Shown here: one piece after another, positions 1 through 59,329 of the stretch
Numbering within the stretch: position 1 is the stretch's first letter
How the letters are laid out: the number at the start of each line of letters is the position of its first letter
Source: Nitrospirota bacterium
Lineage (GTDB): Bacteria > Nitrospirota > Thermodesulfovibrionia > Thermodesulfovibrionales > Dissulfurispiraceae
Length of the DNA stretch: 64,000 bases
NCBI GenBank assembly: GCA_040758355.1
Contig: JBFLWF010000006.1
Location: 32,001-96,000, forward strand
Direction: 5' to 3'
The notes under the pieces: generated by a model
The model's input: the letters and a program-made list of their open reading frames with translations, nothing else
The model's database searches: none
What the model was told of the DNA's origin: nothing
Made by a program: the position numbers and the translations under genes

Positions 1-521
1 CCGTTATAGATTATCATTATCTTGTCTTTATGCACGGCATAGTGCCTTATGATCTGCTCCCTCACCATCTTTGAATTGGCAATTATAAGTTTTGTATTTT
101 CGAAGAGTTTTTTTTCGAGATTAAGAATCGCTATATGAAGCGGATTTATTCTGAAAGAGAGTTTTTTGTAAAACGGCCCGGTCTTTGACCTTATCTGAAG
201 CCACTCTGCATGGCATCCTTCGCCGGCCCTGTATATGTCCTGGCATGTCGTCCTCTCAAAACTTATAATATAATCGTAGACCATTGACCCTTGACCCTTA
301 ACCCTTGACCTTGCATTGATATCAAATGTCAGCGTGCTGAGGAAAGAGGTGAAGGGAATAATATTAACCTTATGAAATGTTATCCCTTCTTCATCGACCC
401 ATTGATTTGCGAATACATGTATTTCATGGCCTGAATTTTTGAGGTGTTGTATAAGGGTTTGCAGATACCTCTCTGCACCGCCATGGATAGAGAACTTCTT
501 TTTTATGAATGCAAGCCTCAA
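1..521 (-). CDS. Glycosyltransferase family 4 (RfaG/WaaG-like), 3' end outside window
   Basis: TTG start at 521 overlaps the stop of the upstream GT2. Reads MRLAFIKKKFSIHGGAERY...SFERTTCQDIYRAGEGCH, a typical GT4 N-terminus, and stays open to the window edge. Confidence 0.8.
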   Translation of the reverse strand, partial: MRLAFIKKKFSIHGGAERYLQTLIQHLKNSGHEIHVFANQWVDEEGITFHKVNIIPFTSFLSTLTFDINARSRVKGQGSMVYDYIISFERTTCQDIYRAGEGCHAEWLQIRSKTGPFYKKLSFRINPLHIAILNLEKKLFENTKLIIANSKMVREQIIRHYAVHKDKIMIIYN

Positions 522-9648: not shown

Positions 9649-11051
9649 TGATGACCTTGATTAACCCGGGCATACTCATTGTTGATGACGAAGATATTGT
9701 AAGGAAGAGCTGCGTCAGGATACTTTCGCCTCAGGGCTATAATCTCGAGACTGCAAAGAATGCGAGCGAGGCCGTGAAGAAACTCCAGAACGAGTCATTT
9801 GATCTCGTGCTCGCAGACCTTGTTATGCCCGATGTAACAGGCATAGACCTTTTGAAAAAAATTAAAGAGGATTGGCCTGAAACAGAGGTGATAATAATTA
9901 CAGGGTATGGAACAGTAAAAACCGCAGTGGATGCCCTCAAATACGGTGTATACGACTTTATAGAGAAGCCCTTCACTCCAGAGGCGCTTTTAAATTCTGT
10001 TGAGCGATGCCTCGAAAAGAAAAAGCTCGAACTCGAAAATATAAGGCTCAGGCAGGAGATCAATGCCCTGTACAGTTTAGACAATATCATAGGCACATCA
10101 AAGGAGATGCAAAAGGTATTTAAGCTCATAGCCACTGTCGCGTCTACAGGCAGCACTGTATTGATAACAGGCGAGAGCGGCACAGGAAAGGAGCTTGTTG
10201 CACGGGCCATACATTACAACAGTGCAAGGAGGGAGCAGCCCTTTATGGTGGTTGACTGCGGCACAATACCCGAAAACCTCATGGAATCCGAATTGTTCGG
10301 ACATACGAAAGGCTCATTCACAGGTGCAATTGCAACAGAAAAAGGAGTTCTCGAGGCAGCCAACGGAGGGACGGTATTTCTTGACGAGATAAGCAATCTT
10401 CCGCTGTCAATGCAGGTGAAGCTTCTGAGGGTATTGCAGGAAAAGGAGTTCAGGCCTGTTGGCAGCAAAAAGACAGTGAAGATCGACATAAGGTTTATCG
10501 CAGCAACTAACAGGGATCTTTCAGAGATGGTTAAAGAAGGGAAATTCAGGGAAGACTTCTTTTACAGGCTGAATGTATTTCCCATCGATATCCCTCATTT
10601 GAGGGACAGAAAAGAAGACATCCCTGCCCTCGCTTACCATTTCCTCCACAAATACAGCAAGGAAGTCGGAAGGGATGTCCCGCACATTTCAGCAGAGGCC
10701 ATGCGCCAGCTCATCGCCAATGACTGGCCTGGCAACGTAAGGGAGCTTGAAAATGTAATCCACAGGGCAGTAATAGTTTGCGAAGGCAGGACTCTCAAGC
10801 CAGAGCATATAATGATACCTCTGAATCGGGAGGAAGAAATAGAAACTCCAAAAACGCTAAAAGAACTGAAATTAAAGAAAAAGGACTTAAGGACAAGGTC
10901 TATAGAGGATATAGAGAAGAGCTTTCTCATTGCCGCGCTTAAGCGTAATGACTGGAATATCACAAAGGCTGCTGCAGAGGTGGGCATGCAGAGGCCGAAT
11001 TTCCATGCGCTGTTAAAGAAATACAATATCTCAAAGGGGAAGGCTGATTAA
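9648..11051 (+). CDS. Sigma-54-dependent response regulator (NtrC family)
   Basis: REC, GESGTGKE, ESELFGH..GSFTGA, WPGNVRELEN, Fis-type HTH. Confidence 0.95.
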   Translation: MMTLINPGILIVDDEDIVRKSCVRILSPQGYNLETAKNASEAVKKLQNESFDLVLADLVMPDVTGIDLLKKIKEDWPETEVIIITGYGTVKTAVDALKYGVYDFIEKPFTPEALLNSVERCLEKKKLELENIRLRQEINALYSLDNIIGTSKEMQKVFKLIATVASTGSTVLITGESGTGKELVARAIHYNSARREQPFMVVDCGTIPENLMESELFGHTKGSFTGAIATEKGVLEAANGGTVFLDEISNLPLSMQVKLLRVLQEKEFRPVGSKKTVKIDIRFIAATNRDLSEMVKEGKFREDFFYRLNVFPIDIPHLRDRKEDIPALAYHFLHKYSKEVGRDVPHISAEAMRQLIANDWPGNVRELENVIHRAVIVCEGRTLKPEHIMIPLNREEEIETPKTLKELKLKKKDLRTRSIEDIEKSFLIAALKRNDWNITKAAAEVGMQRPNFHALLKKYNISKGKAD

Positions 11052-11122
11052 ACCATAATCCGTAAACATGGATAGCAGGTATGCGCTCAAAGCCGTCCCT
11101 CTTTTCGGCGCACCTGCTATCC
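11050..11122 (-). repeat. Short tandem-G.A hairpin element (copy S2)
   Basis: GGATAGCAGGT...ACCTGCTATCC stem with CTCAAAG/CTTTTC core. Left flank AAACC..AATCCGTAAA also occurs at 36156. Confidence 0.7.
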
Positions 11123-11134
11123 TGCATTAGTGAG

Positions 11135-11323
11135 ATGACAAAAATCGATTGTTTTAAATGCAAACACTTCTATATCACATGGGACAAAGGCTTTCCTTAT
11201 GGATGCAAGGCAATGGGATTCAAGACAAAAAACATGCCCTCTGATGTCGTCTATCAATCTTCGGGAATGGAGTGTTTGAAATACGAGGAAAAGGACAAAA
11301 ATCCTAAAAATATCATCAGATAA
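11135..11323 (+). CDS. Small Cys-rich conserved hypothetical protein
   Basis: CFKCKHFYITWD..PYGC..GFK...SG.EC; ATG 11135 chosen as start. Confidence 0.7.
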   Translation: MTKIDCFKCKHFYITWDKGFPYGCKAMGFKTKNMPSDVVYQSSGMECLKYEEKDKNPKNIIR

Positions 11324-11395
11324 ACCGCCTAAGCGAGGGGATACAAAACTTCTTCCTGCTTGTGTCGCCAATGAGGACAGCACAAAACTTAGCAG
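11317..11395 (-). pseudogene. DNA methyltransferase internal remnant fused to the GCGGTTTATCTG motif
   Basis: Minus strand reads KFCAVLIGDTSRKKFCIP, versus KHCAVLIGDTRRNKFYIP in the 14359-14685 remnant. Confidence 0.75.
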
Positions 11396-11449
11396 GTGGC
11401 AGATTATAAATCTGTGGTATAATTTAATAAAAATGAAGGGTGGATTCCA

Positions 11450-11740
11450 CTGCCAATCATAATTGATGATATAATATGGCTGGATACCATAGTTGAGAAG
11501 ATTGCATGGAAACACGGCGTACTTCCACATGAGGTTGAAGAAGTGTTATCCGGCAATTTCAGGATGTTTAAAAGAGAAAGCGGAAAGGTTGAAGGAGAGG
11601 ATCTTTATAATGCCCTCGGCATAACCGAAGGCGGACGATATCTCTCAATATTTTTTATAAGGAAACTAAATAACAAGGCCCTGATCATAACTGCAAGAGA
11701 TATGAACAAAAGGGAGAAAAGAAGATATGAAAAAAAGTAA
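11450..11740 (+). CDS. BrnT-family toxin
   Basis: Frame extends upstream to CTG 11450 after GAAGGGTGG: IIW..IVEKIAWKHGV..EVEEV...ALG.T..GRYL...IITARDM...E.RRY. Confidence 0.8.
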   Translation: MPIIIDDIIWLDTIVEKIAWKHGVLPHEVEEVLSGNFRMFKRESGKVEGEDLYNALGITEGGRYLSIFFIRKLNNKALIITARDMNKREKRRYEKK

Positions 11741-11966
11741 ATACAGAGAGATGACAATAGCAGAGGCAAGCGACTATTTCAACGAGCATGATATATTTGA
11801 GTTTGAAGATGTAAAGGAAGTCTCTGATGTCAAATTCAAGTTGCATAAGAAAAAATATATTGGGGTTGACATAGACCTTTTTAAGAAAATTAAAAGTAAA
11901 GCAAAAAAACTCCATAAAAGCGAAGACCTGCTTATAAAAGAATGGCTTATTGAAAAAGTCGGGTAA
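11727..11966 (+). CDS. Cognate antitoxin (BrnA/CopG-like RHH)
   Basis: Overlaps the toxin; EASDYF..HD...LIKEWL.EK. Confidence 0.75.
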   Translation: MKKSKYREMTIAEASDYFNEHDIFEFEDVKEVSDVKFKLHKKKYIGVDIDLFKKIKSKAKKLHKSEDLLIKEWLIEKVG

Positions 11967-12039
11967 GACTTTTTCAATACCTTAAAAAATCCTTCCCGAT
12001 TTGTCTTTTGCAGTTTTGTTCTTTCGCCCCTTCCATGCT

Positions 12040-12081
12040 TTTTTGAAACACAAAAATATGCTCATTAAAAGGAGGGGAAAA
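12040..12081 (-). pseudogene. Methyltransferase C-terminal remnant
   Basis: Minus strand encodes ..EHIFVFQK, matching HEHIFVFYK of the 14359-14685 remnant. Confidence 0.55.
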
Positions 12082-12090
12082 GCATTAGGA

Positions 12091-12444
12091 TTAGTAAAAC
12101 TCTTGTAAAAATCTCAGTTGATTATCAATTTCTCCATCTTTGGTAACAGCAAGCAATTTGAGAGTTAGCCTTATTAGCTCTGCAATTTTTATTTCAGGAG
12201 ATATGATAATTCCTTTGTGGCGTTTGCCTTCTTCGAGCCATGTCCTATGCAGTTTTGTGAAATCGCCAATATTAAAAGTGAGTATGGCTCTGCCCTGAGA
12301 GGCTGTAAATACAAGTTGTTCTAAATCATTTTTGCCAAGCATGCCCGCATCTCTCGCAGACAAGACATCATAATTGTATTGCTTCAATATTAAGGTGAGG
12401 TCAACAGGGATCATTTCATCGAGATAAAGCTTAATAGCAGCCAT
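12091..12444 (-). CDS. DUF5615 PIN-like toxin
   Basis: KLYLDE...YDV......D.EQL..A....R.ILTFN..DF...H.GII. Confidence 0.85.
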   Translation of the reverse strand: MAAIKLYLDEMIPVDLTLILKQYNYDVLSARDAGMLGKNDLEQLVFTASQGRAILTFNIGDFTKLHRTWLEEGKRHKGIIISPEIKIAELIRLTLKLLAVTKDGEIDNQLRFLQEFY

Positions 12445-12842
12445 CAGTCATATTTTTCAGGAAGGGTTTCCCATGTATATGTCTTTTCTTTTTCATCGTC
12501 CGATAGTTTTTCAAATTCTTCTTCCGTTATAAGCCGGTCAATCCCGTATTCGCCTACAACCAATCGCATATTAGATCTTTTCATAATCGCTCTGAGTGTA
12601 TTTTCCTGAATTTCCTGTTCAATCTCATTCTTATGATCAAAGTAATAGCTGATGGCGTCATGGATCTGCGCAAATGTAAGATGAGGGTATCCCATAAGAA
12701 TATCTTCCGCAGAGTTTCCGCTTTTCACCATAGAAGCGATTAAGCGCACTGTAATCCTTGTGCCGGATATAACAGGCGAACCGCCGCAGATTTCCGGATT
12801 CTTGATAATGTAAGGATGTTCGGTCTTTAATTCTGTAGGCAT
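12444..12842 (-). CDS. DUF433 antitoxin
   Basis: HPYI..NPEICGGSPVISGTRI.V...YPHLT..QIHDAISYY; ATG 12842 with AGGAGG SD. Confidence 0.88.
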   Translation of the reverse strand: MPTELKTEHPYIIKNPEICGGSPVISGTRITVRLIASMVKSGNSAEDILMGYPHLTFAQIHDAISYYFDHKNEIEQEIQENTLRAIMKRSNMRLVVGEYGIDRLITEEEFEKLSDDEKEKTYTWETLPEKYD

Positions 12843-12900
12843 TGCGGACTTCCTCCTAAGCAAATAATATCAAAATCGCTCTGAAAGATGCAATTTATAT

Positions 12901-13060
12901 TCACAGATAAACCGCCCTGCCGACTTCTCTGGCAATAAGATTGTCGAATTTATAGTTCTTAAGCCACTGAGATTCCCGTTTCAGATTTTTGAATGCATCC
13001 GCCGCATCTGTGCCTTCGGCGATGCCGATGACAACGGCATCTTCAGTTGAATGGAGTTCA
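12901..13060 (-). pseudogene. 3' remnant of an unknown gene ending ...AVYL*
   Basis: Minus strand VVIGIAEGTDAADAFKNLKRESQWLKNYKFDNLIAREVGRAVYL*; no start codon; homologous to 13583-13689. Confidence 0.75.
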
Positions 13061-13062
13061 GA

Positions 13063-13302
13063 TTACTTTTTGAGAAATTTTTGAAATTCCTCTGGAGACA
13101 ATTCAATATCGCGAAGGATTTTTCTTAGAAGCCCTCGACCAATGGTCTTCCCTTTATGAACGGGGACTGTTGTTTTCCTTCCATCAGGGTGGGTATATCT
13201 GAAGTGACTGCCTTTGGACTTTCTCGTATTCTTGAAGCCAAGCCTTTCAAGAATCCTTATAATTTCTTTGGAAGGCAGTATTGGAAGTCCGCCTTCAGTC
13301 AA
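13063..13302 (-). CDS. hicA: HicA-family toxin
   Basis: L.RLGF....KGSH...HPDGRKTTVPVH......G.L.KIL. Confidence 0.9.
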   Translation of the reverse strand: MTEGGLPILPSKEIIRILERLGFKNTRKSKGSHFRYTHPDGRKTTVPVHKGKTIGRGLLRKILRDIELSPEEFQKFLKK

Positions 13303-13532
13303 ACTGCAACCTCAAGGCTTTTAATGCCTATTACTTCAGGATATTTTAAACTGATTTTTTTCTTTCTTTCCTTAAGTTCTTCAATGCACATGGCAATCAC
13401 ATCTTTTATATTTTCTATTGCCTCTTCAAAGGTCTCTCCCTGTGCATAGCAGCCCTGAAGTGCAGGGCATTCAGCAACATAGACGCCATCTTCATCTTGC
13501 TCGATAATTACCTGAAGATTATATTTCTTCAA
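13299..13532 (-). CDS. hicB: HicB-family antitoxin
   Basis: IEQDEDG.YVA.CPALQGCYAQGETFEEA; TTG 13532 after GGAGGTG. Confidence 0.9.
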   Translation of the reverse strand: MKKYNLQVIIEQDEDGVYVAECPALQGCYAQGETFEEAIENIKDVIAMCIEELKERKKKISLKYPEVIGIKSLEVAV

Positions 13533-13563
13533 TTTTAACACCTCCCCTGTTAAGTCTATGAAC

Positions 13564-13597
13564 ATTATACACCTAAAGCCGTTTACAGATAAACCGC
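13564..13597 (-). promoter_or_regulatory. 34-bp repeat containing a TATAAT -10 (copy 1 of 2)
   Basis: ATTATACACCTAAAGCCGTTT(A/G)CAGATAAACCGC recurs at 14358-14391 with one mismatch; both copies precede a TA-like operon. Confidence 0.7.
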
Positions 13598-13689
13598 CCC
13601 GCCTGCTTTTCTGGCAGCAAGGTTGTCGAACCGTTTCAGATTTCTGAACGCATCCTTTGCATTTCTGCCTTCGGCAATGCCGATAATTA
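13583..13689 (-). pseudogene. Second 3' remnant of the ...AVYL* gene (internally deleted)
   Basis: VIIGIAEGRNAKDAFRNLKR-FDNLAARKAGGAVYL*. Confidence 0.75.
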
Positions 13690-14238
13690 CGACTTTTTGA
13701 GATGAATAATAGGCTCAAGTTTAGGAAGCAGGAAATATTTTCCAGCCAGTTTGTAGACTTTGCGAATATCGGCCTTCTTTGAAAGCTCTTTAATATCAAT
13801 AATGTCCTGACTGCTTAACGGCAGGAGTTTCAGTAAGATAAGGTATTCAGGGGTAGCGACTTTAATGCTCTTTCCCAGAACATCGGCAACAACCGCATTT
13901 TTTATCGCATCAGCCGCCAAATCAAATCCGCCCGTGCCTATAATATCAACCTGAATCTGACCTGACATGAAAGAAAATTTCTCCTGTATCGTCATTCGCG
14001 GCGTTGCTTTATGGACAGATACCTTTTTCTGCAGTCTTGTCTGGATAAGAGAGATCAGGTCTACCCAGTTTATCTTTTTTGAGATTATAACAACCAGATC
14101 AACATCCCTCGTGGTGCGCGGACGCACCCATGCCGAAAGCGCAAGCCCGCCAATAAGCGCATAATCTTCGACAATGCCTTCATTCTTCAGCTCATCGAAA
14201 AAGGAAATGGTTTTTATAAAGGCTTCGATTATAGACAT
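13687..14238 (-). CDS. Nucleotidyltransferase (AbiEii/DUF6036-like), putative toxin
   Basis: YALIGGLAL.....PRTTRDVDL...VATPEYLILLKL......D..DI. Confidence 0.75.
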   Translation of the reverse strand: MSIIEAFIKTISFFDELKNEGIVEDYALIGGLALSAWVRPRTTRDVDLVVIISKKINWVDLISLIQTRLQKKVSVHKATPRMTIQEKFSFMSGQIQVDIIGTGGFDLAADAIKNAVVADVLGKSIKVATPEYLILLKLLPLSSQDIIDIKELSKKADIRKVYKLAGKYFLLPKLEPIIHLKKS

Positions 14239-14351
14239 TACTTTTTCTTTCCTGCTTTATGAACCGACTTCTTGATTATTAAGGAAAGTTCGAGCAGTTC
14301 GAGGGCGATTTCTATGTTTTTGCCGTTCGGTTTTAAAGGCTTCTTTTTCAT
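14238..14351 (-). CDS. 37-aa basic partner protein (not in ORF track)
   Basis: MKKKPLKPNGKNIEIALELLELSLIIKKSVHKAGKKK*. Stop overlaps the NTase ATG (TAATG); TATAAT lies 6 nt upstream of the start. Confidence 0.6.
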   Translation of the reverse strand: MKKKPLKPNGKNIEIALELLELSLIIKKSVHKAGKKK

Positions 14352-14358
14352 GCTTGAA

Positions 14359-14685
14359 TTATACACCTAAAGCCGTTTGCAGATAAACCGCAGGGCCTGC
14401 CTCTGTAGGTTTTCGTGGCTTGTAAAAAACAAAAATGTGCTCGTGCATTATGAGGAGAAAGTTGTACTCCTTTGATTTTTTGACCCAAAAACCTGTTGCC
14501 CTGCAATTGTGCTGAACCTTGATGATGTCTTCTTTGAGGACGAATCCAGCCTTTAAAAAGCGCTCCATGACGTTATACGCAAGGGGAATATAGAATTTGT
14601 TCCGCCTCGTATCGCCGATAAGAACAGCGCAATGTTTGCCGGGCTTTAAAACCCTGAAACATTTAGGATAGATTATTTTTGACAA
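14359..14685 (-). pseudogene. 5'-truncated beta-class DNA methyltransferase fused to the AVYL motif
   Basis: CFRVLKPGKHCAVLIGD...GFVLKEDIIK.QHN...HEHIFVF; lacks the catalytic and SAM motifs; ends EAGPAVYL. Confidence 0.75.
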
Positions 14686-14712
14686 TTCTAATAAAATACA
14701 TCAGGTGAACTC

Positions 14713-15165
14713 ATGAAGAAGATATTAACCCTCGCTGATCAGATCAACAAACGAATTTGGTGGCATTCTCCACCATCAGACAAAAACGCTTACAAAAAAA
14801 GAGGTATGTTCCTGTCTTCGTCATATAAGGAATGCGAATTTTATGGCCGCCCTCTTGATGAACCAATTAGGGTAAAAGTGTCTAAACCGTTAGTAGACAC
14901 TGAACGAAATGTAATTAGATTTTTCTTTGGTAATGATTCTCCACAGATGCTTACCTTAAATGCCTTAATGAATGGCACCTCAAGAAGCCCGGTAAAGGCA
15001 AGATTTAAATTAGATGCGGATTTATTTGAAGCAGCTAAGAAAAACAAATATGATGCCATTGCAATAATCCCAGAAAAGGGTCTTGAAAAAATAAAAAATC
15101 ACAAACTTCCAAGAAGTGTAGAGTTGAACGTAATTGATTTCGAGAATGGAATTGATAAAGTATGA
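14713..15165 (+). CDS. Hypothetical protein, possible ADP-ribosyltransferase-like fold
   Basis: SD AGGTGA; stop overlaps the MTase ATG; H...G.FL.......FYG...V.KPL...YDAI pattern. Confidence 0.55.
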   Translation: MKKILTLADQINKRIWWHSPPSDKNAYKKRGMFLSSSYKECEFYGRPLDEPIRVKVSKPLVDTERNVIRFFFGNDSPQMLTLNALMNGTSRSPVKARFKLDADLFEAAKKNKYDAIAIIPEKGLEKIKNHKLPRSVELNVIDFENGIDKV

Positions 15166-16103
15166 AAGGCACTACACATAAAATTAAAAGCGAAAAAAAG
15201 TGGTCTATAATATACAAGTACACAGAAAGCCCAATTGAATTTTACATTTCAGAAGAAACAGTCACTTATGGCGACAACGGCAAGAAAAAGCCTTTCTCCA
15301 TTTACTACGACAACCCTGCACATTCAGTGAGACTTCTCAAAGGCGATTGCATAGAGATATTGAATCAGGCCAGGGAAAACAGTGTTGATATGATTTTTGC
15401 CGACCCGCCTTATTTTCTTTCTAATGGAGGCATCACTTGCCATGCGGGAAAGATGGTATCTGTTAATAAAGGCAAGTGGGATAAATCCAAAGGTGTGGCA
15501 GAAAATCATAAATTTACTCTCGAATGGCTCAAGGCTTGTCAGCGCGTCCTAAAGCCAAATGGAACAATATGGGTTTCGGGAACAACACATATCATTTACT
15601 CGGTCGGCTTTGCAATGCAGGAGCTTGGATATAAAATCCTTAATGACATTATCTGGTACAAGCGCAACGCTCCACCAAATCTCTCATGCAGATATTTCAC
15701 ACATTCAACAGAGATAGTTTTATGGGCTGCCAAAAATGAAAAAAGCAAACATTACTTTGATTATCATCTTATGAAGAAAATGAATCAAGGTAAGCAGATG
15801 CGTAATGTGTGGGAAATCTCAGCACCGCCAGCAGAGGAAAAGAAGTTCGGAAAACATCCAACTCAAAAACCTGTGGAGCTTTTGAAAAGAATTATCCTTG
15901 CATCTACAAAAGGGGACGATTTAGTGCTTGATCCCTTCTGTGGCAGTTCAACAACCGGCGTTGCAGCGGTCTTATTAAATCGGAAGTATGTAGGGATTGA
16001 TTTGGAGGATGAATATCTTGCTGTCTCTGTAAAGCGATTGAAAGAAGCAATTGTGAAAAAAGAACATAAGCTATTTGAGCATAAAGAGGCAGTAACACGA
16101 TGA
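15162..16103 (+). CDS. Beta-class N6-adenine methyltransferase (DpnA-like)
   Basis: FADPPYFLSNGG, HPTQKP, LDPFCGS.TTG. Confidence 0.92.
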   Translation: MKGTTHKIKSEKKWSIIYKYTESPIEFYISEETVTYGDNGKKKPFSIYYDNPAHSVRLLKGDCIEILNQARENSVDMIFADPPYFLSNGGITCHAGKMVSVNKGKWDKSKGVAENHKFTLEWLKACQRVLKPNGTIWVSGTTHIIYSVGFAMQELGYKILNDIIWYKRNAPPNLSCRYFTHSTEIVLWAAKNEKSKHYFDYHLMKKMNQGKQMRNVWEISAPPAEEKKFGKHPTQKPVELLKRIILASTKGDDLVLDPFCGSSTTGVAAVLLNRKYVGIDLEDEYLAVSVKRLKEAIVKKEHKLFEHKEAVTR

Positions 16104-17026
16104 AATATTCCCCAATATTTAAAAATAAGATAGGTTGTAAGAATGAAAGCGAAGTATTTGCTTATCTGATCAATAATCTTAATGATTCCATCAGATACTG
16201 GGACTATTTTGTGAACTGGAAAAAGGTTCTCGGTAACACGCGAGAGTTGGAGGTAGATTTGAATATTATGAACTACCTGATCGGCAAGGAAGATATTGAG
16301 AAAGAATTTGGTTGTCTTTTAAAAAAGCATCCTCAGATTTTAAGATTAGTTCCTGTGCTTCTTGCATGTAGAGAACATAAGTTTAAAATCCTCACAGATC
16401 TTTCTGAGGGGAATCTCAAGTATGATGATTTTTCATTTGAGGAAAAGAGAAACCTTTCCGATGCTGAAATTTCAAAAGTTGTCCGTTTTGCGCAAAAAAG
16501 TGGCTTGTTAAAAATATTCAAAGACAAAACCGTTAAGAATGTTGTTGATTACACAATTGGGATTGAGGTTGGGCTTGACAGTAATGGGCGTAAAAACCGA
16601 GGCGGTACTGCTATGGAGAAAGTTATCGAATCTTATATTAAAGTAATATGCAAAATGCATGGCTTCAGATATATGAAACAGGCGACTTCTGAAAAGGTGT
16701 CTTCAGAATGGGGACTGAAACTTAGTGTTGACAAATCAAGTAGACGATTCGATTTTGCAGTATACAATGGCAAGAAGCTTTATCTCATAGAAGCCAATTA
16801 CTATGGCGGTGGAGGCTCTAAACTTAAATCTACAGCAGGCGAATATAAAGCTCTATATGATTTTGTCTCTAAGGACGGTCATAAATTTATCTGGATTACC
16901 GATGGCTTGGGATGGAAGACTACCAGTAGGCCTTTAGAGGAAACTTTTAATCATATCGAGTATCTTTTGAATTTAAAAATGCTTACTGAAGGTATCTTAG
17001 ATGGGATTGTTGTAAATAACCTCTAA
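16100..17026 (+). CDS. DpnII-family type II restriction endonuclease (GATC)
   Basis: GIEVGLDSNGRKNRGG, RFDF...IEANYY.GGGSKL, FIWITDG.GW. Confidence 0.9.
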   Translation: MKYSPIFKNKIGCKNESEVFAYLINNLNDSIRYWDYFVNWKKVLGNTRELEVDLNIMNYLIGKEDIEKEFGCLLKKHPQILRLVPVLLACREHKFKILTDLSEGNLKYDDFSFEEKRNLSDAEISKVVRFAQKSGLLKIFKDKTVKNVVDYTIGIEVGLDSNGRKNRGGTAMEKVIESYIKVICKMHGFRYMKQATSEKVSSEWGLKLSVDKSSRRFDFAVYNGKKLYLIEANYYGGGGSKLKSTAGEYKALYDFVSKDGHKFIWITDGLGWKTTSRPLEETFNHIEYLLNLKMLTEGILDGIVVNNL

Positions 17027-17064
17027 AGGGACAACAAAAATTGTACTCTGAATTTTTTAAGTCT

Positions 17065-17316
17065 CTATACTTCTATAGGCCATATAGGAGTAAAAGAATT
17101 GTTCGTCTCTTCAACTGATATTATGTTTTTGACCTCAAATTTACGCGTCCCCTTTTTCATTATGTCATAACAATAAAAGAATTCACTCCCTCTCTCAAAT
17201 CTGTAACTGTATGGTTCGGCTTCTCGAGTTTCAATAGAACCATCTTTCTCCTTAGCTGTTAATAGAATGGTATGAAGATTTTTACCAGCAGATGAAATAA
17301 TATCTTTAATTGTCAT
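17065..17316 (-). CDS. Stand-alone WYL-domain protein
   Basis: REAEPYS...FYCYD......R.F.V.NI..V......F.P. Confidence 0.7.
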   Translation of the reverse strand: MTIKDIISSAGKNLHTILLTAKEKDGSIETREAEPYSYRFERGSEFFYCYDIMKKGTRKFEVKNIISVEETNNSFTPIWPIEV

Positions 17317-17404
17317 TGCATACCCTCCACTGAAAAAATATTCTTAAAATAATAATCATTCTTTTTTGTCTACCCCCTACCAAAATTCAGGGTGCGACCT
17401 ATCT

Positions 17405-19318
17405 TCAGACATCTGGTAATATTCTTTTGCAGAGATCTTCTAATAGAACACATTTCTTGCCCTTCTCCCAGAGATGCTGAAGAGTAGCCACTATAACCAT
17501 TTCGTTTTTCTTTTTATTGGATATATCATTATAGCCGTAAAGCGCTACCATTTCAGCTTGTGCTTTATCCCAGACGTCATGCCCGATCTCATCTCGAACT
17601 GAATCCCTTATATTAGTACCCCACATTACCACATTTGTACCAAAATATCCGCCAGCCGACAACGGATCAACATCAGATGCTGAACATAAGTTGAGAATAC
17701 ATCTATTATCACGGCTATTGTCCTTCTTAACACAGTCCTTTGCATTCTTATCAGAATCACCATCAAAAATTACAAAATAGGGAATAGAGAGTTCCTTAGC
17801 TATAGCAAGTGGTCTGCTCATACTAGTCTTTCCACCGCATATAATGAAATGTCCGCCGCGCCGCTTAAACTCCATCATTCGCCCCAATAGTTCAATGTAT
17901 GTCGATATAAAAGCAACGTCCTCAATACCCTCTACTAATACTGCTAATCCGCTGAAATAAAGTTCGTTTAAAGAAGGTTGCATTATCTGTTGGATCATTG
18001 CCATGCAACTAGACGGCGGTGCGGGACTTTCACCTAAAGCAGCGGCAATGCAATTACTTAGCTTTTCTAATGTCAGATGAGATGCGGTGGAACAATCATC
18101 ATCGTCTTTCCATCGAACTAATCTTATATTTTCTACTCCTTTCCCAGATACAAAATATGGGCTGTGGGTAGTCACAACAACTTGAGCATTTTCCATGTCT
18201 TCAAGAAGTTTTGCCAAGTGCCGGGCCTGCGGAGGATGTTGATAGACTTCAGGCTCCTCAAACCCCAGAAGGAGCATAGGAACTTTTTCCTGTTTACTCT
18301 TTGCCAACATCTGTAATACTGAAACAATAAAAGCACGCTGTAACCCATGCCCCATTCTTCGTATATCACCAAGAAACTGCTTTTCGCCCACCTCTGCCTT
18401 AGCTAACGGCGGATCGACTTTAAATTTGCTTGGATCGAAATTCCAAGATAGTTTTACTCTGGCATCAGGATGAGTCCATTCCTGTAAAAGGCTTTGGAGC
18501 GAAGCCGAAACATCCTCTAATACATGATCTTGCTCACGAAGTATTGCTTCGTACTTTGTTCGTACTTCTTCCTTTAGGGGAATGAGATAGTCTGCAAAAT
18601 TGACACGCGACCTTATAGTTCGCTCAAGCAATTTGCCGAATGCTGTATTCTTAGATTCTTCTTGCTCGCTGGCTGCATCTTTTACAGCAGGAATGTACAC
18701 CCATTGCAGAAAGGGATCTAGTTTCCCTGATCCTTGGAATCCGAAAAATTGATCTTCGCTATCAATAAGTTCACACAATTCTGGGTGCTGGTCTTCATAA
18801 GCTCGGAGTGCTTCAAGCTTATCGTCCTTAGATTTCGGATTTGGAAGGTCTGGATACCTTTCGCGATATCCGTTATAAAGTTGCGTTAACAGGGCGGCAC
18901 TTTGACCTGCTTTATATGCCTCAAAAAATGGCCTAAATTCACCCATTCCCAGTCTTGCACCGAATTGCCTAACTTCTGCGGTTCTTTTTTCTTCATTCCA
19001 GACAGCTTTAGCAGTAAATATAAGTTTTTCGTTTCGTACATAGTGTTGCAAACTCTCTTTAGCTTCGGGTGTCAATTCGCCGAAAGTTGCCCTGATTTCT
19101 ATCGGGTCAGTGGTATTTCGATTGTGGAAATCCTCTTCTATTAATATCTGTACATCGGTTGTTACATCGGTCTTATTTCGGAATAAAACGTTTAAAGCCA
19201 TAAGGACTGTTGATTTGCCAGCGCCGTTTGGGCCTACAAGAGAGGTATACTTGCCAAAGTGGATGGTTGAGTCTTTAAATCCCCTATAGTTCTTAATCTC
19301 TAAAGTTTCAAGCTGCAT
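17405..19318 (-). CDS. OLD-family ATP-dependent nuclease (ABC ATPase + TOPRIM)
   Basis: GPNGAGKST, GHGLQR, FEEPE.YQHP, TTHSPYF, LVEG.ED, FDGD. Confidence 0.88.
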   Translation of the reverse strand: MQLETLEIKNYRGFKDSTIHFGKYTSLVGPNGAGKSTVLMALNVLFRNKTDVTTDVQILIEEDFHNRNTTDPIEIRATFGELTPEAKESLQHYVRNEKLIFTAKAVWNEEKRTAEVRQFGARLGMGEFRPFFEAYKAGQSAALLTQLYNGYRERYPDLPNPKSKDDKLEALRAYEDQHPELCELIDSEDQFFGFQGSGKLDPFLQWVYIPAVKDAASEQEESKNTAFGKLLERTIRSRVNFADYLIPLKEEVRTKYEAILREQDHVLEDVSASLQSLLQEWTHPDARVKLSWNFDPSKFKVDPPLAKAEVGEKQFLGDIRRMGHGLQRAFIVSVLQMLAKSKQEKVPMLLLGFEEPEVYQHPPQARHLAKLLEDMENAQVVVTTHSPYFVSGKGVENIRLVRWKDDDDCSTASHLTLEKLSNCIAAALGESPAPPSSCMAMIQQIMQPSLNELYFSGLAVLVEGIEDVAFISTYIELLGRMMEFKRRGGHFIICGGKTSMSRPLAIAKELSIPYFVIFDGDSDKNAKDCVKKDNSRDNRCILNLCSASDVDPLSAGGYFGTNVVMWGTNIRDSVRDEIGHDVWDKAQAEMVALYGYNDISNKKKNEMVIVATLQHLWEKGKKCVLLEDLCKRILPDV

Positions 19319-19488
19319 TCTTCCTCCTAATACGAGCTTTACTTAATAAGATATAGAGGCAACTTGTATATTATCCATGGGGCGCAGGCTTATTTTTCGA
19401 TCACTTTTTTCTGTCAGCAATCCATTTTTTGACAGTCCTGTCTTATTTCTGCCGCATTATAAATGAGAAAATGGAATTTTTTCAATAT

Positions 19489-19519
19489 AAAAACAGGACA
19501 TTTCTATTTTGGCTTGACA
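19489..19519. mobile_element. Possible solo IS terminal repeat (IS1202/ISNCY-like)
   Basis: AAAAACAGGACATTTCTATTTTGGCTTGACA ends where DpnI similarity begins. The resemblance to IS ends is from memory only; no transposase is nearby. Confidence 0.35.
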
Positions 19520-19696
19520 TCACAAAAACAAGGCGGAGATTTATCTTTAGGCGAGGCATATTCTTTTGATAGACGCCTTCAAGTGCTACATCCAGATAAC
19601 AAGCACATCCGCCCCAAAATCTGTCAGCAGTTGCAGATTCTGAGGGATAAAGGCATTCTGGAATTCAAAGGACAAGGGAAATATCAATTCAAATAA
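19520..19696 (+). pseudogene. DpnI / Dam-replacing protein C-terminal winged-helix remnant
   Basis: SLGEAYSF...L...HPDNKHIRPKICQQLQILRDKGILEF.G.G.Y. Confidence 0.85.
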
Positions 19697-19709
19697 CTTA
19701 GCCCTCGCC

Positions 19710-19803
19710 CCGCCCCAAAATCCGCTCTATGAGTCGTTGACTCCACTCTATGAGCCGTTGGCTCAACGAGCCATAGGCGAGTCAGAGACCGGCAGCTTTA
19801 AAT
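19710..19803 (+). repeat. DpnI remnant copy B with palindromic insert
   Basis: CCGCCCCAAAATCCGC, then a 63-bp insert, then CCGGCAGCTTTAAAT. Confidence 0.7.
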
Positions 19804-19812
19804 ATAATTTTT

Positions 19813-19834
19813 TGTTATAATTGTGTTATAACAC
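19813..19834 (+). promoter_or_regulatory. TA promoter/operator palindrome
   Basis: TGTTATAAT extended -10 followed by the perfect palindrome GTGTTATAACAC. Confidence 0.6.
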
Positions 19835-19849
19835 TGCACGGAGGTTTCG

Positions 19850-20098
19850 ATGCACAGGAAATTATGTTCCATAGGCAACAGTCAGGGAATATCAATTCCG
19901 CTGGATATGCTCGAAAGACTCAATCTGTCTGTAGGCTCTGAAGTGGATGTCAAGCTTGACGAAGCTGAATCAAGAATTATCATAGAGCCGGTAATGAAAA
20001 AAAAATATCCCAGGGGCATTGACAGGGAATTTGTCTCTCAGGTTAATGATTTTATCGGAAAGTACAAACCTGCGCTAAAAGAACTCGCAAAGAAGTGA
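19850..20098 (+). CDS. AbrB/MazE-family antitoxin
   Basis: RKL..IGNSQGISIP...L..L.L..G.EV. Confidence 0.88.
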   Translation: MHRKLCSIGNSQGISIPLDMLERLNLSVGSEVDVKLDEAESRIIIEPVMKKKYPRGIDREFVSQVNDFIGKYKPALKELAKK

Positions 20099-20484
20099 AA
20101 TATCTTTTAGTAGAGCAGGTTCTTTTTATTCACAGCAGGCTTATAGATGAGACAGGCGGCTCGCACGGAGTCAGGGATTTGGGGCTTCTTCAGGCTGCGG
20201 TATCGAGGCCGAAGGCGACTTTCGGGGGCAAAGACCTCTATCTTGATATTTTTCACAAGGCAGCGTCCCTCATGGAATCGCTTATAAAAAACCATCCTTT
20301 TATTGACGGCAACAAAAGAACCGCAATAACATCTGTCGGTATTTTTTTGCAAAGAAACGGCTGGTTATTGGAAACTTCACAAAAGGAGCTTGAGAGATTT
20401 GTGATTTCCGTGGCTGCAGGCAATGCCTCTTTTGATGATATTGTTAAGTGGTTTAAGCAGTATTCCTCAAAAGCAAAAATATAG
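20095..20484 (+). CDS. doc: Doc/Fic-family toxin
   Basis: GVRD.GLL..A..RP and HPFIDGNKRTA. Confidence 0.9.
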   Translation: MKYLLVEQVLFIHSRLIDETGGSHGVRDLGLLQAAVSRPKATFGGKDLYLDIFHKAASLMESLIKNHPFIDGNKRTAITSVGIFLQRNGWLLETSQKELERFVISVAAGNASFDDIVKWFKQYSSKAKI

Positions 20485-20485
20485 A

Positions 20486-20629
20486 CACATCCGCCCCCCA
20501 AAATCCGCTCGAAGCGAGTCTCGCGAAGAGTCGCACCGACCAGCAGCTTCAAATCCTCCGAGACAAAGGCATACTGTCCACGACTCGCAGAGGAGTTTAA
20601 ATGGGAAGGGGAGGTACGGGATTTTTTAA
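20486..20629 (+). repeat. DpnI remnant copy C with two inserts
   Basis: HIRP-KIR[insert]QQLQILRDKGIL[insert]EFK-GKGRYGIF*. Confidence 0.8.
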
Positions 20630-20919
20630 GGATGGGGTGTAATGGCTATAATAGTTATCTCTTTGTTTCCGGGACCATAATGCCAAAATATTCTATACGC
20701 GGCAGGGGTGGACTGCTCTGCATATGCCTCAAATACTTTTTCTCCTTTTGGACCTTTTAACGAAGTAAATTCATGGGTTTGCAGTCCGGGATGTCTTGGG
20801 TTTTGAGATAAAAATTGAATTGTCTTTTTTACTGCGTTATATCGTTTGGCAAGACCTTTGTCTGTCTTGAGCCGGTTTAACTGTTCTTTAGCCTCATCGG
20901 TCAGGAGTATATCGAACAA
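20626..20919 (-). CDS. RelE/ParE-like toxin
   Basis: L..NPRHPGL.THE...L.G..GEKVFEAY......AYRIFW.YG.....I.I.AI.PHP. Confidence 0.7.
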   Translation of the reverse strand: MFDILLTDEAKEQLNRLKTDKGLAKRYNAVKKTIQFLSQNPRHPGLQTHEFTSLKGPKGEKVFEAYAEQSTPAAYRIFWHYGPGNKEITIIAITPHP

Positions 20920-20928
20920 GAGAGATTC

Positions 20929-21177
20929 CTATAATTCATTGAGATTGAGTTTTGAAATCCTGCCTTCAGATGCGTCTTTCAGCCCTTTGTGAACGCTTTT
21001 AAGAGCTTCTTTATTTTTATAAAGCCATCTTTCGGGAAGCGGAATAGTTTCCAAAAGGGTTTCTAACCTGTCAAGCTCGTCCATAGCAATAACAGCAGCC
21101 ACTTTGTGCCCTCTTTTATCTGTTAAATACTGCTTAATTTTAATAAGTTCGCTTTCGCTCTTTAAGGTTGCCGGCAT
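20929..21177 (-). CDS. Putative antitoxin
   Basis: IP..E.WLY.N.EA...V..GL.DA..G; lies upstream of the RelE-like gene; AGGAGG SD. Confidence 0.7.
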   Translation of the reverse strand: MPATLKSESELIKIKQYLTDKRGHKVAAVIAMDELDRLETLLETIPLPERWLYKNKEALKSVHKGLKDASEGRISKLNLNEL

Positions 21178-21220
21178 ATATCCTCCTTTGAAGCCTGTTG
21201 CTAAAATAAATTATAACATA

Positions 21221-21256
21221 ATAACAAACACATCCACCCCCAAAATCCGCCGGCAG
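21221..21256 (+). repeat. DpnI remnant copy D; right edge of island
   Basis: ATAACAAACACATCCACCCCCAAAATCCGCCGGCAG (NKHIHP-KIRRQ). Confidence 0.7.
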
Positions 21257-21286
21257 CGGTTTTTAATATGCCAATGGTCGTGAGAA

Positions 21287-21478
21287 CTACACCTGTGCGG
21301 TTTTTAATTCTCCTGAATGGGGACGTTTTCTGTTCGGACAGTATATCACGGGGCAGGACTCGCAGCTTTCAGCAGAGTCTATCTCAAAGCCGAAGGGGAT
21401 CAATTCTCCGCAGTCGCATTGCCAGCCTTCTGGGGTATGTTTTGATAATGCATTATCACAAAAAGGACATTTAAGCAT
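21287..21478 (-). CDS. Small Cys-rich (Zn-finger-like) protein
   Basis: CPFC, CDC, CESC...C in 63 aa. Confidence 0.55.
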   Translation of the reverse strand: MLKCPFCDNALSKHTPEGWQCDCGELIPFGFEIDSAESCESCPVIYCPNRKRPHSGELKTAQV

Positions 21479-21554
21479 ATGTCTAATTTAAGTATAGAAC
21501 CGGGGAAAATATTTTTTTATGACGTGTATCATATGGATGCACACCCCTGTGTAT

Positions 21555-22370
21555 TTATCCCTTCCTTGAATCCTCAAGGTTACGAACAATCTCTGCGCCT
21601 ATGAGGAATATGCAGGATGAATAGAAGACCCACAGGAGGAATATCACAAAGGCCGAGAGGGGTCCGTATATGGTTCCTAATTTCGCAACCTTTACTACAT
21701 AGAGGGTGAAGGTGTGCTTTGCTGCTTCAAGAAGGATTGCTGTAAATAACGCCCCTGATAATGCGCAGCTGAGTCTTATCCTTTTTTTCGGGAGGAAGAT
21801 GTAGAGCGTGGCTGCGGTCAGGAATACCAGTATCAATGGCACGACAAATTTTATTACAAAGCCTGTTATCTTCCCAATCTTTACATCCGGGAAAAATTCC
21901 TGAAGTGTCTTAAGCATCGAGATTGCAGCTGTTGCGCCAAAGGAGGCAAGGATAAAGGCAATTATCAGGGTGATGATGAATAGAGAGAGGACAATGGAGA
22001 TTATAAAATGTCTCTTAGCCTTTGTCTTGAATATCACATTTGTTGCTGTTTCAAGTGATGAAAAAAGCTGGTAGGACAATACGGCATAGAGGATTACTGT
22101 AAACTGCCCTATTCCTTTGTAGGATATTATCTTTTTCAGTTCGTTGGTTATCTCGTGTGTGATCTTTGGAAAGAAACCCACGAGTTTTGCTGAAAAGAAT
22201 CTGAGCAGTTCTTCATTGCCGCCGAGGAAATGTCCGAATATTGTCACGAGGAGGAGGCAGAAGGGGACGATTGCCATCATGGTGAAGTATGATATTGAGC
22301 CTGCAAGCATGAGCCCGCCGTCCCTGAAGAAGTCCACGAAGCTTCTGAGTATTGCCTTTACATATCGCAT
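21555..22370 (-). CDS. YihY/BrkB-family membrane protein
   Basis: F..D....LA..I.YF; IYG.L.....FLLW..YSS.I.L.GAE. Confidence 0.9.
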   Translation of the reverse strand: MRYVKAILRSFVDFFRDGGLMLAGSISYFTMMAIVPFCLLLVTIFGHFLGGNEELLRFFSAKLVGFFPKITHEITNELKKIISYKGIGQFTVILYAVLSYQLFSSLETATNVIFKTKAKRHFIISIVLSLFIITLIIAFILASFGATAAISMLKTLQEFFPDVKIGKITGFVIKFVVPLILVFLTAATLYIFLPKKRIRLSCALSGALFTAILLEAAKHTFTLYVVKVAKLGTIYGPLSAFVIFLLWVFYSSCIFLIGAEIVRNLEDSRKG

Positions 22371-22430
22371 TTATGCTCAATTATAACAGAATCGATTGCT
22401 GGCAGTGCGTAAGCATGGTATTATTTTAGT

Positions 22431-22943
22431 ATGAAAAGGATTTTATATATATCGGCTGTTTTATGCATTGTCTTATTCTCTTGCGCCACAGGCAATTATC
22501 TGAAGACAGAAGGTGCAAAGGATGCGGATATCAAAGGTTCTTTCACCCTCATACTTTACGGCAGCAGGCATTTAAATGATATTGAGACCATAGCAATTCT
22601 TGACATTGAAGGAGACAGCTACAGCTTTGAGCCGTATGCACCTGAATTTGACTATAAGATAAAAAAGGGTATTCCTGCTAAAGAGGCACTGGAGGAAGCA
22701 GAGAGGTTTGTAAGCTGGCACAGCTCATTCCATTACTCACAATTAAGCAGGATTCTTGATGATAAAGGCAATGTCATCGGGTATGAGATTAGACCGCTTT
22801 ACCGGCCTCTTGCCTTTGGTGCTTCGGATGTCCTCGATGTCGATTACAGGATTAAAGACAGCAGGGTAATCGTGAGAATAAGGCTCAAGCCGCAGATCGA
22901 AAGGATGCTCTTTGACGGAGACAAATCAAAAGAGGATAATTAG
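22431..22943 (+). CDS. Hypothetical lipoprotein
   Basis: Signal peptide with LFSC lipobox. Confidence 0.75.
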   Translation: MKRILYISAVLCIVLFSCATGNYLKTEGAKDADIKGSFTLILYGSRHLNDIETIAILDIEGDSYSFEPYAPEFDYKIKKGIPAKEALEEAERFVSWHSSFHYSQLSRILDDKGNVIGYEIRPLYRPLAFGASDVLDVDYRIKDSRVIVRIRLKPQIERMLFDGDKSKEDN

Positions 22944-58041: not shown

Positions 58042-58067
58042 TTGGCTTGCTATCCGAATTTTTTAAT

Positions 58068-58370
58068 TTATACAGCATTTGCATACACCCTTACCTCTTG
58101 CTCCAATCTTTTGCCGAGTTCCTCAGCAGTGACATCTAAATCATACTGTGATTGCAGTCCGAGCCAGAATTCGGCGGATGTTCCAAAGAACCTTGCAAGC
58201 CTGAGAGCGGTATCGGCAGTAATTCCGCGCTTGCCGAGAACAATTTCATTGATTCTCCGCGGTGGCACGCCAATACTAAGCGCAAGTCTGTTTTGACTTA
58301 TACCCATTGGCTTGAGAAATTCTTCCAAAAGAACTTCGCCAGGATGTACGGGATGTAGCTTTTTTTTCAT
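58068..58370 (-). CDS. higA: HigA antitoxin
   Basis: HPGE.L.EEFL.P, ITADTALRL..FFG....FWL.LQ. Confidence 0.93.
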   Translation of the reverse strand: MKKKLHPVHPGEVLLEEFLKPMGISQNRLALSIGVPPRRINEIVLGKRGITADTALRLARFFGTSAEFWLGLQSQYDLDVTAEELGKRLEQEVRVYANAV

Positions 58371-58381
58371 AACCCTCCTCT

Positions 58382-58663
58382 CTAATGATAGTCAGTTATT
58401 TCCACGTCATGCGCATCACCTTCTTGCCAGGTGAAGCAGATACGCCATTGGTCATTAATCCTGATGCTATATTGTCCTTCACGGTCGGCTTTTAGTTTTT
58501 CCAGCCGGTTCGCAGGTGGTATCCTCAAATCATTAAGATTTTTTGCGTTATTTATCATACGTAATTTCCTTAATGCAACTTGCTGAATATCTCGCGGTAA
58601 TTTGTTTGATCCCTCTCGACTATATACCTTCTCTGTTTCATTGTCCCTAAATGATTTTATCAT
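58382..58663 (-). CDS. higB: HigB toxin
   Basis: MIKSF, PP.NRLE.L, YSIRINDQWRICF. Confidence 0.93.
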   Translation of the reverse strand: MIKSFRDNETEKVYSREGSNKLPRDIQQVALRKLRMINNAKNLNDLRIPPANRLEKLKADREGQYSIRINDQWRICFTWQEGDAHDVEITDYH

Positions 58664-58744
58664 TTATTGTAATTTTATAACGGGAAGCGTTAAACGTCAA
58701 GAGTTATTTTTGGAGGCGGTTTGGTGAGAAATACGGTATTTCAC

Positions 58745-58802
58745 AGATAATGACTGAATTAACGGGCGGCTACTCGCCGTCCCCTTGAATGACTCGTTAG
58801 AT
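58745..58802 (-). mobile_element. Integron attC site (R' degenerate)
   Basis: ATCTAAC-GAGTC-ATTCAAGG-GGACGGC-GAGTA-GCCGCC-CGTTAAT-TCAGTC-ATTATCT shows R''-5-L''...L'-6-R' spacing; GTT is changed to ATT. Confidence 0.8.
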
Positions 58803-59067
58803 GTTTCTTTGATTCAAATCTCAGGGGATATTTTTCAGGATGTTCGAGATTGTCAATTTCAAGGTCAACATCCAAATCAGGCCAGTATAAATGATAGCCA
58901 TGAAGCAATTGAACATTTTGTATTGAACTCAATGTCTGGTCTTTAAAATATGGATAATCCTTATAGCTTAGAAAATATTCCTTTTCTTTAACATACAGCC
59001 ATATGCCGAAAGGCGTTATGTTTTCAACGCTTACTGAAATGCCTTTGCCATGTTTTAGCGATTTCAT
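58759..59067 (-). CDS. DUF2442 protein (DhiA-like)
   Basis: GIWL....KEYFL.Y..YP.F...HL.WP.LDVDL......PE.YPL. Confidence 0.85.
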   Translation of the reverse strand: MKSLKHGKGISVSVENITPFGIWLYVKEKEYFLSYKDYPYFKDQTLSSIQNVQLLHGYHLYWPDLDVDLEIDNLEHPEKYPLRFESKKHLTSHSRGRRVAAR

Positions 59068-59266: not shown

Positions 59267-59329
59267 TCTAATTAATATTTAATACAATTCTTGCAGTTTT
59301 TGCAATATAACTACAGAAATCAGTTTTAT

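Follow-up and report, generated by a model that had tools for sequence, protein, structure and literature searches.

How do small toxin–antitoxin pairs come to lie in a row between repeated copies of the 3′ end of one restriction gene? The question is raised by a defense island in a 64,000-nt stretch of contig JBFLWF010000006.1 from a Nitrospirota bacterium (assembly GCA_040758355.1), hereafter the window, in which fragments of dpnI recur between toxin–antitoxin modules. All coordinates are positions of this whole stretch; G denotes genomes (G000, the genome under study, comprises 2.77 Mb in 93 contigs), L loci, X sequencing runs whose contigs were compared, and C, followed by a number, contigs of G000. 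The island covers approximately 10 kb (11317–21257) and has a GC content of 0.40 versus 0.44–0.46 in its surroundings; the array of dpnI tails forms its right arm. The array is real, lineage-wide, and two-armed. Its tails are likely crossover patches for homologous recombination rather than sites for a dedicated integrase, and such arrays probably let cells acquire, lose, and exchange defense modules through ordinary recombination, with no specialized enzyme.

Repeated dpnI ends and their distribution

A sequence check places the starts of four dpnI-derived segments (tail copies A–D) at 19604, 19710, 20486, and 21229, as claimed in a preliminary description of this DNA. That description had read each of them as encoding the peptide HIRPKIRQQ; the dpnI origin stands, while the intact peptide is absent from all four, as copy A reads HIRPKICQQ, copy B retains RPKIR only, and copies C and D are frameshifted within a C-run. 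Copy A matches the Pfam family DpnI_C (E = 4.6e-19) and the DpnI structure 4esj (E = 3.9e-11). Copy C reads QQLQILRDKGIL, and its stop overlaps that of the RelE-like gene. The 10-mer CCCCAAAATC occurs nine times in the 2.77-Mb genome, four of them within this array. Between copies A and C, 9 of 36 nucleotides are different, affecting 7 of 12 codons, and every change is synonymous; hence the copies descend from separate working genes, in line with their earlier interpretation as independent alleles and not a fresh duplication.

No cargo separates copy A from copy B. The copies bracket an AbrB antitoxin (PF04014) with a Doc toxin (PF02661, TIGR01550) and a RelB-like/RelE-like pair, again as first described, the label RelE-like being a lead: this protein has no match in Pfam, NCBIfam, or PDB. 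The two borders of the RelE-like module are the same in six genomes from three families (G000, G001, G047, G160, G174, and G175). A word beside copy D that resembles a XerD arm was rejected as a recombination site: by eye it reads as the extended −10 box of the antitoxin (TGTTATAAT), it has no accompanying XerC arm, and it is seen in one cargo family only.

The design at both island ends had been described as a mirror image, and this is confirmed by other loci: full-length dpnI stands divergent to an N6/N4 methyltransferase, forming an intact island core, and methyltransferase tails occupy the opposite arm in many loci. In the window, the divergent methyltransferase–dpnI core has given way to a DpnII-type system and an OLD nuclease, and the tails of the missing core genes recur in both arms. 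In L087, L090, L092, L096, and L147, too, other defense genes are enclosed by a methyltransferase tail and a dpnI tail, both outward; in L101 approximately 330 nt separate the two tails. The left repeat consists of the 3′ end of a small gene, AF_1447-like as a lead from ESM Atlas features (0.93), with fragments of a second methyltransferase mixed in.

The order has DpnI_C hits in 34 of 201 genomes, the phylum in 25 of 301. The exact tail pattern is present in 22 species-genome stretches (19 with Nitrospirota titles, one from Methanoperedens, and two from Acidiferrales) and in 18 metagenome rows, with no match in viral contigs. A profile scan, in which the tail core is required for detection, identified 63 tail copies at 36 loci in 43 upstream-flank clusters and had no match in 662,638 shuffled bases. 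From the initial 64 fragments in 44 clusters, L114 was dropped as a full gene of another subfamily; L084, L113, L124, and L127 lie outside the boundary scan, and identical contexts from doubly fetched contigs were collapsed before counting. Fragments elsewhere are multi-copy with sharply non-random 5′ boundaries, rather than the single copies with random breakpoints that would have spoken against the preliminary description. The median tail-to-tail distance is 814 nt (36 intervals), and the cargo includes HicAB, RelB/ParE, PIN, MNT/HEPN, DUF433/DUF5615, UPF0175/DUF3368, and Gp49/HTH pairs or a NERD nuclease. In other families, whole modules reappear between the same junctions; in other strains, they are missing. 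The islands adjoin differing host genes (yihY, greA, rpmA, yip1, ftsY, gyrB/gyrA, and others). For annotation, many short DpnI_C matches in this lineage are spacers, not genes. A literature search retrieved no report of dpnI-tail arrays, most subscription papers being outside its reach.

Several further features of these loci were noted. A lone dpnI tail lies between gyrB and gyrA at L098:6599-6685 with no cargo gene, and four-helix genes (PF05635) are present in L086 and L107. Tails are entered at +9 and +44 by a family of 15–16-nt GAGTC/GAGCC palindromes, which are single, tandem, or nested; L100 holds most of the 63-nt insert of copy B. Repeat arms with a seven-base period divide tails between the core and the distal half or come after stops in L023, L024, L081, L083, L112, and L117.

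Module-sized gains and losses at one site

Contigs and relatives display module-sized gains and losses at tail borders, along with empty and alternative forms of the site. Among four same-genus genomes, the site is empty in G003, whereas G001, G002, and G004 carry other toxin–antitoxin pairs with the same spacer. An X2 contig also has an empty site, with a joint from 11329 to 21555. The end of the host gene is similar to the left repeat in the empty genome, consistent with a joint formed at a short match. Joints that correspond to the loss of a single module were observed at 19696-20496 and 20547-21288 in X4 and at 11983-12840 in X20, although some contig joints could be other tail alleles mapped onto the nearest copy. 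Other island cores in contigs of other runs rejoin at the start of copy B (16015 to 19710). A minor X1 contig links the methyltransferase tail (14663) to the dpnI tail (19589) with 1357 letters between them, comparable to the intact-core lengths of 1362 in L081 and 1464 in L085. Joints leading from 21236 back to 20495/20496 in X2 and X4, seen in contigs only, fit equally well a circle or a C-type allele at the position of copy D. In the X20 strain, the RelE-like toxin and the distal half of copy C are gone (20508-20902) and the antitoxin is kept, the joint lying directly behind the tail core.

The assembly itself is supported by an X1 contig that spans 19753-22500 unbroken, with 13 differing letters and one gap, and by X20 and X11 contigs that bridge copies A and B. 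Across 11000-22000, Rfam gave no matches at E 1, and the core open reading frames (ORFs) at 14713-15165 (150 aa) and 17065-17316 (83 aa) have no match in Pfam or NCBIfam. The features of the island and related sites are listed in the table.

Table. Features of the island, its flanks, and related sites (window positions unless a contig or locus is given)
Feature	Position	Strand	Basis or remark
Host Cys-rich ORF, left flank	11081..11323	+	
Left border: end of the small gene (13 nt) overlapping the stop of the host gene, then inner methyltransferase fragment (11331-11399)	11317..11399	-	
BrnT/BrnA-like pair	11543..11966	+	Weak BrnA match only, E 0.0028
Methyltransferase-tail remnant, short	12037..12065	-	Weak (9.5 bits)
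DUF433/DUF5615 pair	12091..12863	-	Pfam; skipped in run X20
Left repeat, small-gene tail, longest copy	12900..13051	-	
HicB/HicA pair	13063..13565	-	Pfam; HicB start approximate, from G002 orthologue
Left repeat, small-gene tail	13582..13706	-	
AbiEii-like nucleotidyltransferase module	13687..14238	-	Pfam
Left repeat, end of small AF_1447-like gene	14376..14406	-	
Lost core methyltransferase, 3′ part	14414..14663	-	Methyltransferase profile
Replacement core	14713..19318	.	150-aa ORF, methyltransferase, DpnII-family nuclease, 83-aa ORF, OLD-like gene
N6/N4 methyltransferase	15162-16103		Replacement core
DpnII-family nuclease	16100-17026		Replacement core
OLD-like ATPase/TOPRIM	17405-19318		Replacement core
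Tail copy A, final ~160 nt of dpnI including stop; AATCTGT at anchor	19537..19696	+	Pfam, profile scan, PDB search
Tail copy B, core of 16 nt, nested palindromic insert of 63 nt (19726-19788), then 8 nt of tail again	19710..19796	+	
AbrB/MazE-type antitoxin	19850..20098	+	Pfam/NCBIfam
Doc-family toxin	20095..20484	+	Pfam/NCBIfam
Tail copy C to stop, split by 31-nt (20509-20539) and 16-nt (20577-20592) GAGTC-containing inserts	20483..20629	+	
RelE-like toxin, 97 aa (label is a lead)	20626..20919	-	ESM Atlas neighbors named RelE/ParE
RelB-like antitoxin	20929..21177	-	Weak Pfam match, E 0.0011
Tail copy D, short (36 nt), last tail of the island	21222..21257	+	Profile scan
Right flank: Cys-containing ORF of 63 aa, shared with G002, and host YihY/BrkB gene (21555-22370)	21287..22370	-	
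GAGTC/GAGCC palindrome sites	19726-19788, 20509-20539, 20577-20592; L024, L085, L093, L100, L128, L140, L147		
Toxin–antitoxin/defense cargo between diverged 29-100 nt host direct repeats, some of them gene ends	G000 C1:28162-29969, C13:36892-37700, C1:231199-232037, C13:1060-2287, C31:19354-20137		
Further cargo between diverged host direct repeats	G000 C32:21578-22406, C33:14783-18848, C40:15059-15976, C49:12412-13036, C52:5128-6280		

Junctions, tail mosaics, and routes of recombination

The 5′ edge of the tail lies 4–20 nt before the anchor (TCCGCCCC-AAAAT) in 35 of 43 distinct junctions; the total range is 4–79 nt, and only in copy A is the edge beyond 47 nt. A whole-gene profile that does not require the tail core gives the same pile-up of boundaries, and its partial hits include no N-terminal or inner fragments of this dpnI clade. 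Longer partial dpnI hits were discarded as genes cut at contig ends or members of other subfamilies. The boundary coincides with the GC-richest of 24 10-nt windows (0.71). Methyltransferase tails begin at scattered points (profile positions ~257–536). Intact fragments constitute 12 of 18 first copies versus 9 of 27 later ones (p = 0.037).

The motif AA(A/T)CCGC, reported at the ends of the repeats in both arms, is present in copies B, C, and D and in four left copies; copy A has AATCTGT instead. Its proposed role as a shared junction signal is not supported: right-arm junctions lie about 8 nt upstream of the motif, left-arm 5′ ends are scattered, and there is no genome-wide enrichment (359 AAACCGC and 309 AATCCGC observed versus 367 and 331 expected). 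The further candidates of a Chi or DNA-uptake sequence were rejected likewise, the 16 motif words having z-scores from −3.1 to 1.3 with no over-representation. Part of the idea survives: at the anchor, AATCCGC is found in 33 of 63 fragments versus 4 of 19 full genes, with palindromic inserts directly behind it.

Searches with tblastn using the genome's five tyrosine recombinases and one Y1 transposase found none of them in 62 loci (520,471 nt). Pfam analysis of 147 + 85 selected ORFs (232 of a larger set) revealed no integrase but a single weak Y1 hit and a single reverse transcriptase of a group II intron; serine and DDE recombinases were covered solely via these 232 ORFs. Elsewhere in the genome there are ComEC, two Y1 genes, and five long tyrosine-recombinase ORFs, one of them similar to an integron integrase (the IntI and Xer labels were assigned by eye). 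Tails that precede the same cargo are more alike than those of unrelated pairs at +60..81 (0.85 vs 0.56), but this likeness is much weaker at +15..60 (0.77–0.82 vs 0.70–0.76; 15 pairs). The points at which the likeness switches vary: L094 matches the full gene of L080 from about +9, L112 does so over the last ~20 nt only, and the tails of L087, L090, L111, and L144 part near +69. Crossovers at variable places would leave such mosaics.

Gene ends as landing pads, proposed in the preliminary description for restriction-modification genes, are supported, and the process extends beyond such ends: other toxin–antitoxin loci of this genome are bracketed by short repeated stretches of host DNA. Flanking direct repeats were detected at 8 of 35 toxin–antitoxin-like loci of the genome and at 5 of 30 outside the island, versus 4 of 400 random places; thus, the dpnI tail is one hotspot of a more general habit. 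Examples recognized by eye include duplicated serS-like and rluD-like gene ends (gene names also by eye). As a separate observation, two DUF433 genes (C12:15573-16031 and C48 near 10809-11027) each lie between copies of one ~41-nt repeat family, possibly a second type of spacer. An intergenic repeat family of ~200 nt occurs in several copies per contig on C1, C5, C12, C18, C22, C26, and C29. The sequence GATC is present at 0.48 of its expectation genome-wide, in line with long exposure to GATC-cutting systems.

Because no integrase is found in the 62 loci and the tails are mosaic, we favor, with a probability of about 0.5, a birth of the arrays by homology-anchored short-match joining, and their spread and loss by homologous recombination in tails and shared modules. 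The birth step would be a case of homology-facilitated illegitimate recombination in transformation, which combines a RecA-dependent anchor with a short-match joint (PMC6382021). Incoming DNA with an intact dpnI and new downstream cargo would pair with the resident dpnI, and its far end would rejoin the resident gene internally, at the C/G-rich patch TCCGCCCC. The gene would be restored, the cargo added, and the old tail with older cargo pushed outward; the methyltransferase operon would do likewise on the opposite arm. Crossovers at any point of the tail could then move, delete, or reorder a tail-flanked module, either linear or circular, and the core between the two innermost tails could be exchanged for other restriction systems by a double crossover. 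Old tails would decay and gather small palindromes and repeat arms. The sharp 5′ edge and the C-run would be ascribed to the descent of one junction allele.

A number of observations weigh against this scheme. As many as 22 of 43 junctions fall at 7–11 nt, sharper than short-match joining needs, and a C-run foreign to the dpnI gene precedes the tail core in 14 of 16 short-boundary flanks. An upstream core accompanies 79 of 96 distal-half segments, with about seven lacking one on inspection, which suggests that the core itself is kept. Just three same-upstream tail pairs are available for comparison; kin are not independent, and all p-values given here overstate. Tails 70–85% alike over ~90 nt are a poor RecA substrate between genera, and the support for competence comes from one gene, ComEC. 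The scheme also draws on general background, namely that illegitimate joints are biased toward GC-rich matches and can leave duplications. Illegitimate recombination is rare in the laboratory, at 10^-2 to 10^-3 of homologous transformation (PMC6382021). Finally, addiction as a ratchet is plausible but doubtful, since a Photorhabdus study reports that chromosomal modules give no long-term stabilization (PMC13617665).

The sharp edge and the C-run, the facts that this scheme explains least well, leave a lower but appreciable probability to another explanation: TCCGCCCCAAAATCCG would be the attachment core for a trans-acting site-specific recombinase (integron integrase, XerC/D, or phage-type), or for larger integrative elements later shrunk to a toxin–antitoxin pair, and the tails would be displaced attR-like gene ends. 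The peaked boundary and the retention of the core agree with it, as do the within-family erosion toward 8 nt (24, 8, 8; 38, 8), the inserts directly behind the core in old copies, and the position of the core as the left arm of an imperfect palindrome in the fold of copy A. Full dpnI genes with their own tail downstream make up 8 of 20 of those having the core versus none of nine lacking it (p = 0.033, confounded by kinship and short contigs). Candidate enzymes are encoded in the genome (the five long tyrosine-recombinase ORFs, including the integron-integrase-like one), and tandem gene-end arrays are known for integrative and conjugative elements (ICEs) as well as thaumarchaeal elements (PMC5812530, PMC6563490). 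However, none of the recombinases sought lies in the 62 loci, no conserved element arm was found beside the core across the 43 unrelated flank clusters, which have only a short C-run in common, and the mosaic tails switch at several places. Moreover, the left arm would require two more unrelated, scattered targets, and the junction is unlike the AA-C pattern of integron crossovers. We regard as rather unlikely the broader proposal that the divergent methyltransferase–dpnI island is an integron analogue, in which the 16-nt core would be a true recombination site for a host enzyme in trans, selected after gene loss, and a lineage-wide pool of toxin–antitoxin cassettes would be captured and reordered on a restriction-gene scaffold moving between chromosomal sites.

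It is improbable that the junctions were created by machinery spreading small palindromes and four-helix repeat arms in this lineage (e.g., a REP-associated HUH enzyme) and cutting at TCCGC. Several genomes do have palindromes of 16, 31, and 63 nt inserted in tails at +9 and +44, many tails are interrupted by repeat arms between the core and the distal half, and the genome has two Y1 genes, with the one weak Y1 hit located behind the L141 tail. Nevertheless, the inserts lie behind the core and the cargo junctions before it, many intact tails have no palindrome, and the palindromes are scarce elsewhere in G000 (1–7 matches per pattern). Local duplication of one dpnI end, with toxin–antitoxin pairs entering later by unrelated routes, would account for the adjacency of copies A and B and for similar empty tandem tails in L081, L136, and run X2; the exclusively synonymous A/C differences and the movement of modules together with their borders across families make it very improbable. 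An assembly chimera was a concern of the preliminary description; a mixture of related strains would be in line with the 93 contigs of the genome and the within-sample strain differences at the site, but has a negligible chance in view of the X1 contig, the A–B bridges in X20 and X11, and the recurrence of the design in 36 loci.

Comparison with known systems

The entry of small toxin–antitoxin islets without mobility genes and their pile-up beside restriction systems have been called poorly characterized (PMC13617665). In these islands, each gain has left a legible scar: dozens of junctions at a single site, the order of arrival, an empty site, an intact ancestral core, and strain-level gains and losses. 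These scars make homologous recombination versus a hidden site-specific system testable on a 90-nt substrate.

Integron cassette arrays and CALINs share with the dpnI-tail arrays one- or two-gene units that are rich in toxin–antitoxin pairs, one repeat per unit, and decay with distance. In contrast, the repeat here is protein-coding, the units stand in either orientation with promoter-like sequences of their own, and the array is integrase-less. No integron integrase with attI was found at the array in the 62 loci; a separate contig has an IntI-like gene, and a broken one lies at a distance of 38 kb. A scan for the attC pattern (RYYYAAC...GTTRRRY hairpins) matched nothing in the island, but it is insensitive, as it also matched nothing in the integron-like stretch at 57.9–60 kb. 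Within that region, HigB/HigA-like and DUF4160/DUF2442-like pairs behind prfA (58042-59900) precede a disrupted tyrosine recombinase; the best match of its pieces is to the integron-integrase-like protein of this genome, and the arrangement resembles a decayed integron.

Tandem integrative elements, such as the ICE SXT/R391 at prfC (PMC5812530) and thaumarchaeal elements in the 3′-distal parts of protein genes (PMC6563490), also use one place in a protein gene repeatedly, leave displaced gene ends between units, and form RecA hybrids. However, the units here are mostly one toxin–antitoxin pair and have no element-encoded integrase in the ORFs and loci scanned, the targeted restriction gene is accessory and often lost, and the two arms derive from two divergent genes. 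Like the island, the pneumococcal tvr locus (PMC6265443) combines restriction-modification genes, direct repeats, and a phd-doc-like pair, and some of its excision is recombinase-free. Nevertheless, tvr encodes TvrR and shuffles hsdS segments, whereas here the cargo varies and neither a local tyrosine recombinase nor hsdS segments of the tvr type were found at the island.

The DpnI/DpnII/DpnIII cassettes and the enteric immigration control region (PMC12707154) similarly feature alternative GATC systems at one place, an empty site, and variable defense content between anchors; the same source contrasts the immigration control region with an integrase-anchored hotspot. Repeated tails are not described in its accessible text, and the anchors here belong to the island and lie beside varied host genes. 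The Photorhabdus toxin–antitoxin islets (PMC13617665) lack mobility genes as well, and one of them has a duplicated 24-bp flanking site, present once in the empty genome. As described in the accessible part of that study, these islets were traced to Tn3 res sites rather than gene tails and form no repeat arrays.

Unconventional circularizable structures (PMC7843796; cfr(C) circles, PMC10770853) likewise have cargo between direct repeats of gene sequence, no recombinase, and exchange at a pre-existing repeat, and the islands have the same recombinase-less cargo between direct repeats. While the repeats of those structures are long and nearly identical, the tails are ~90 nt and mostly 70–85% alike, have a peaked 5′ edge, and stand in rows of up to five. 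On the features tested, the dpnI-tail array falls outside integrons, integrative-element arrays, and the tvr type, and it works like gene-end tandem accretion combined with recombinase-free direct-repeat cassettes.

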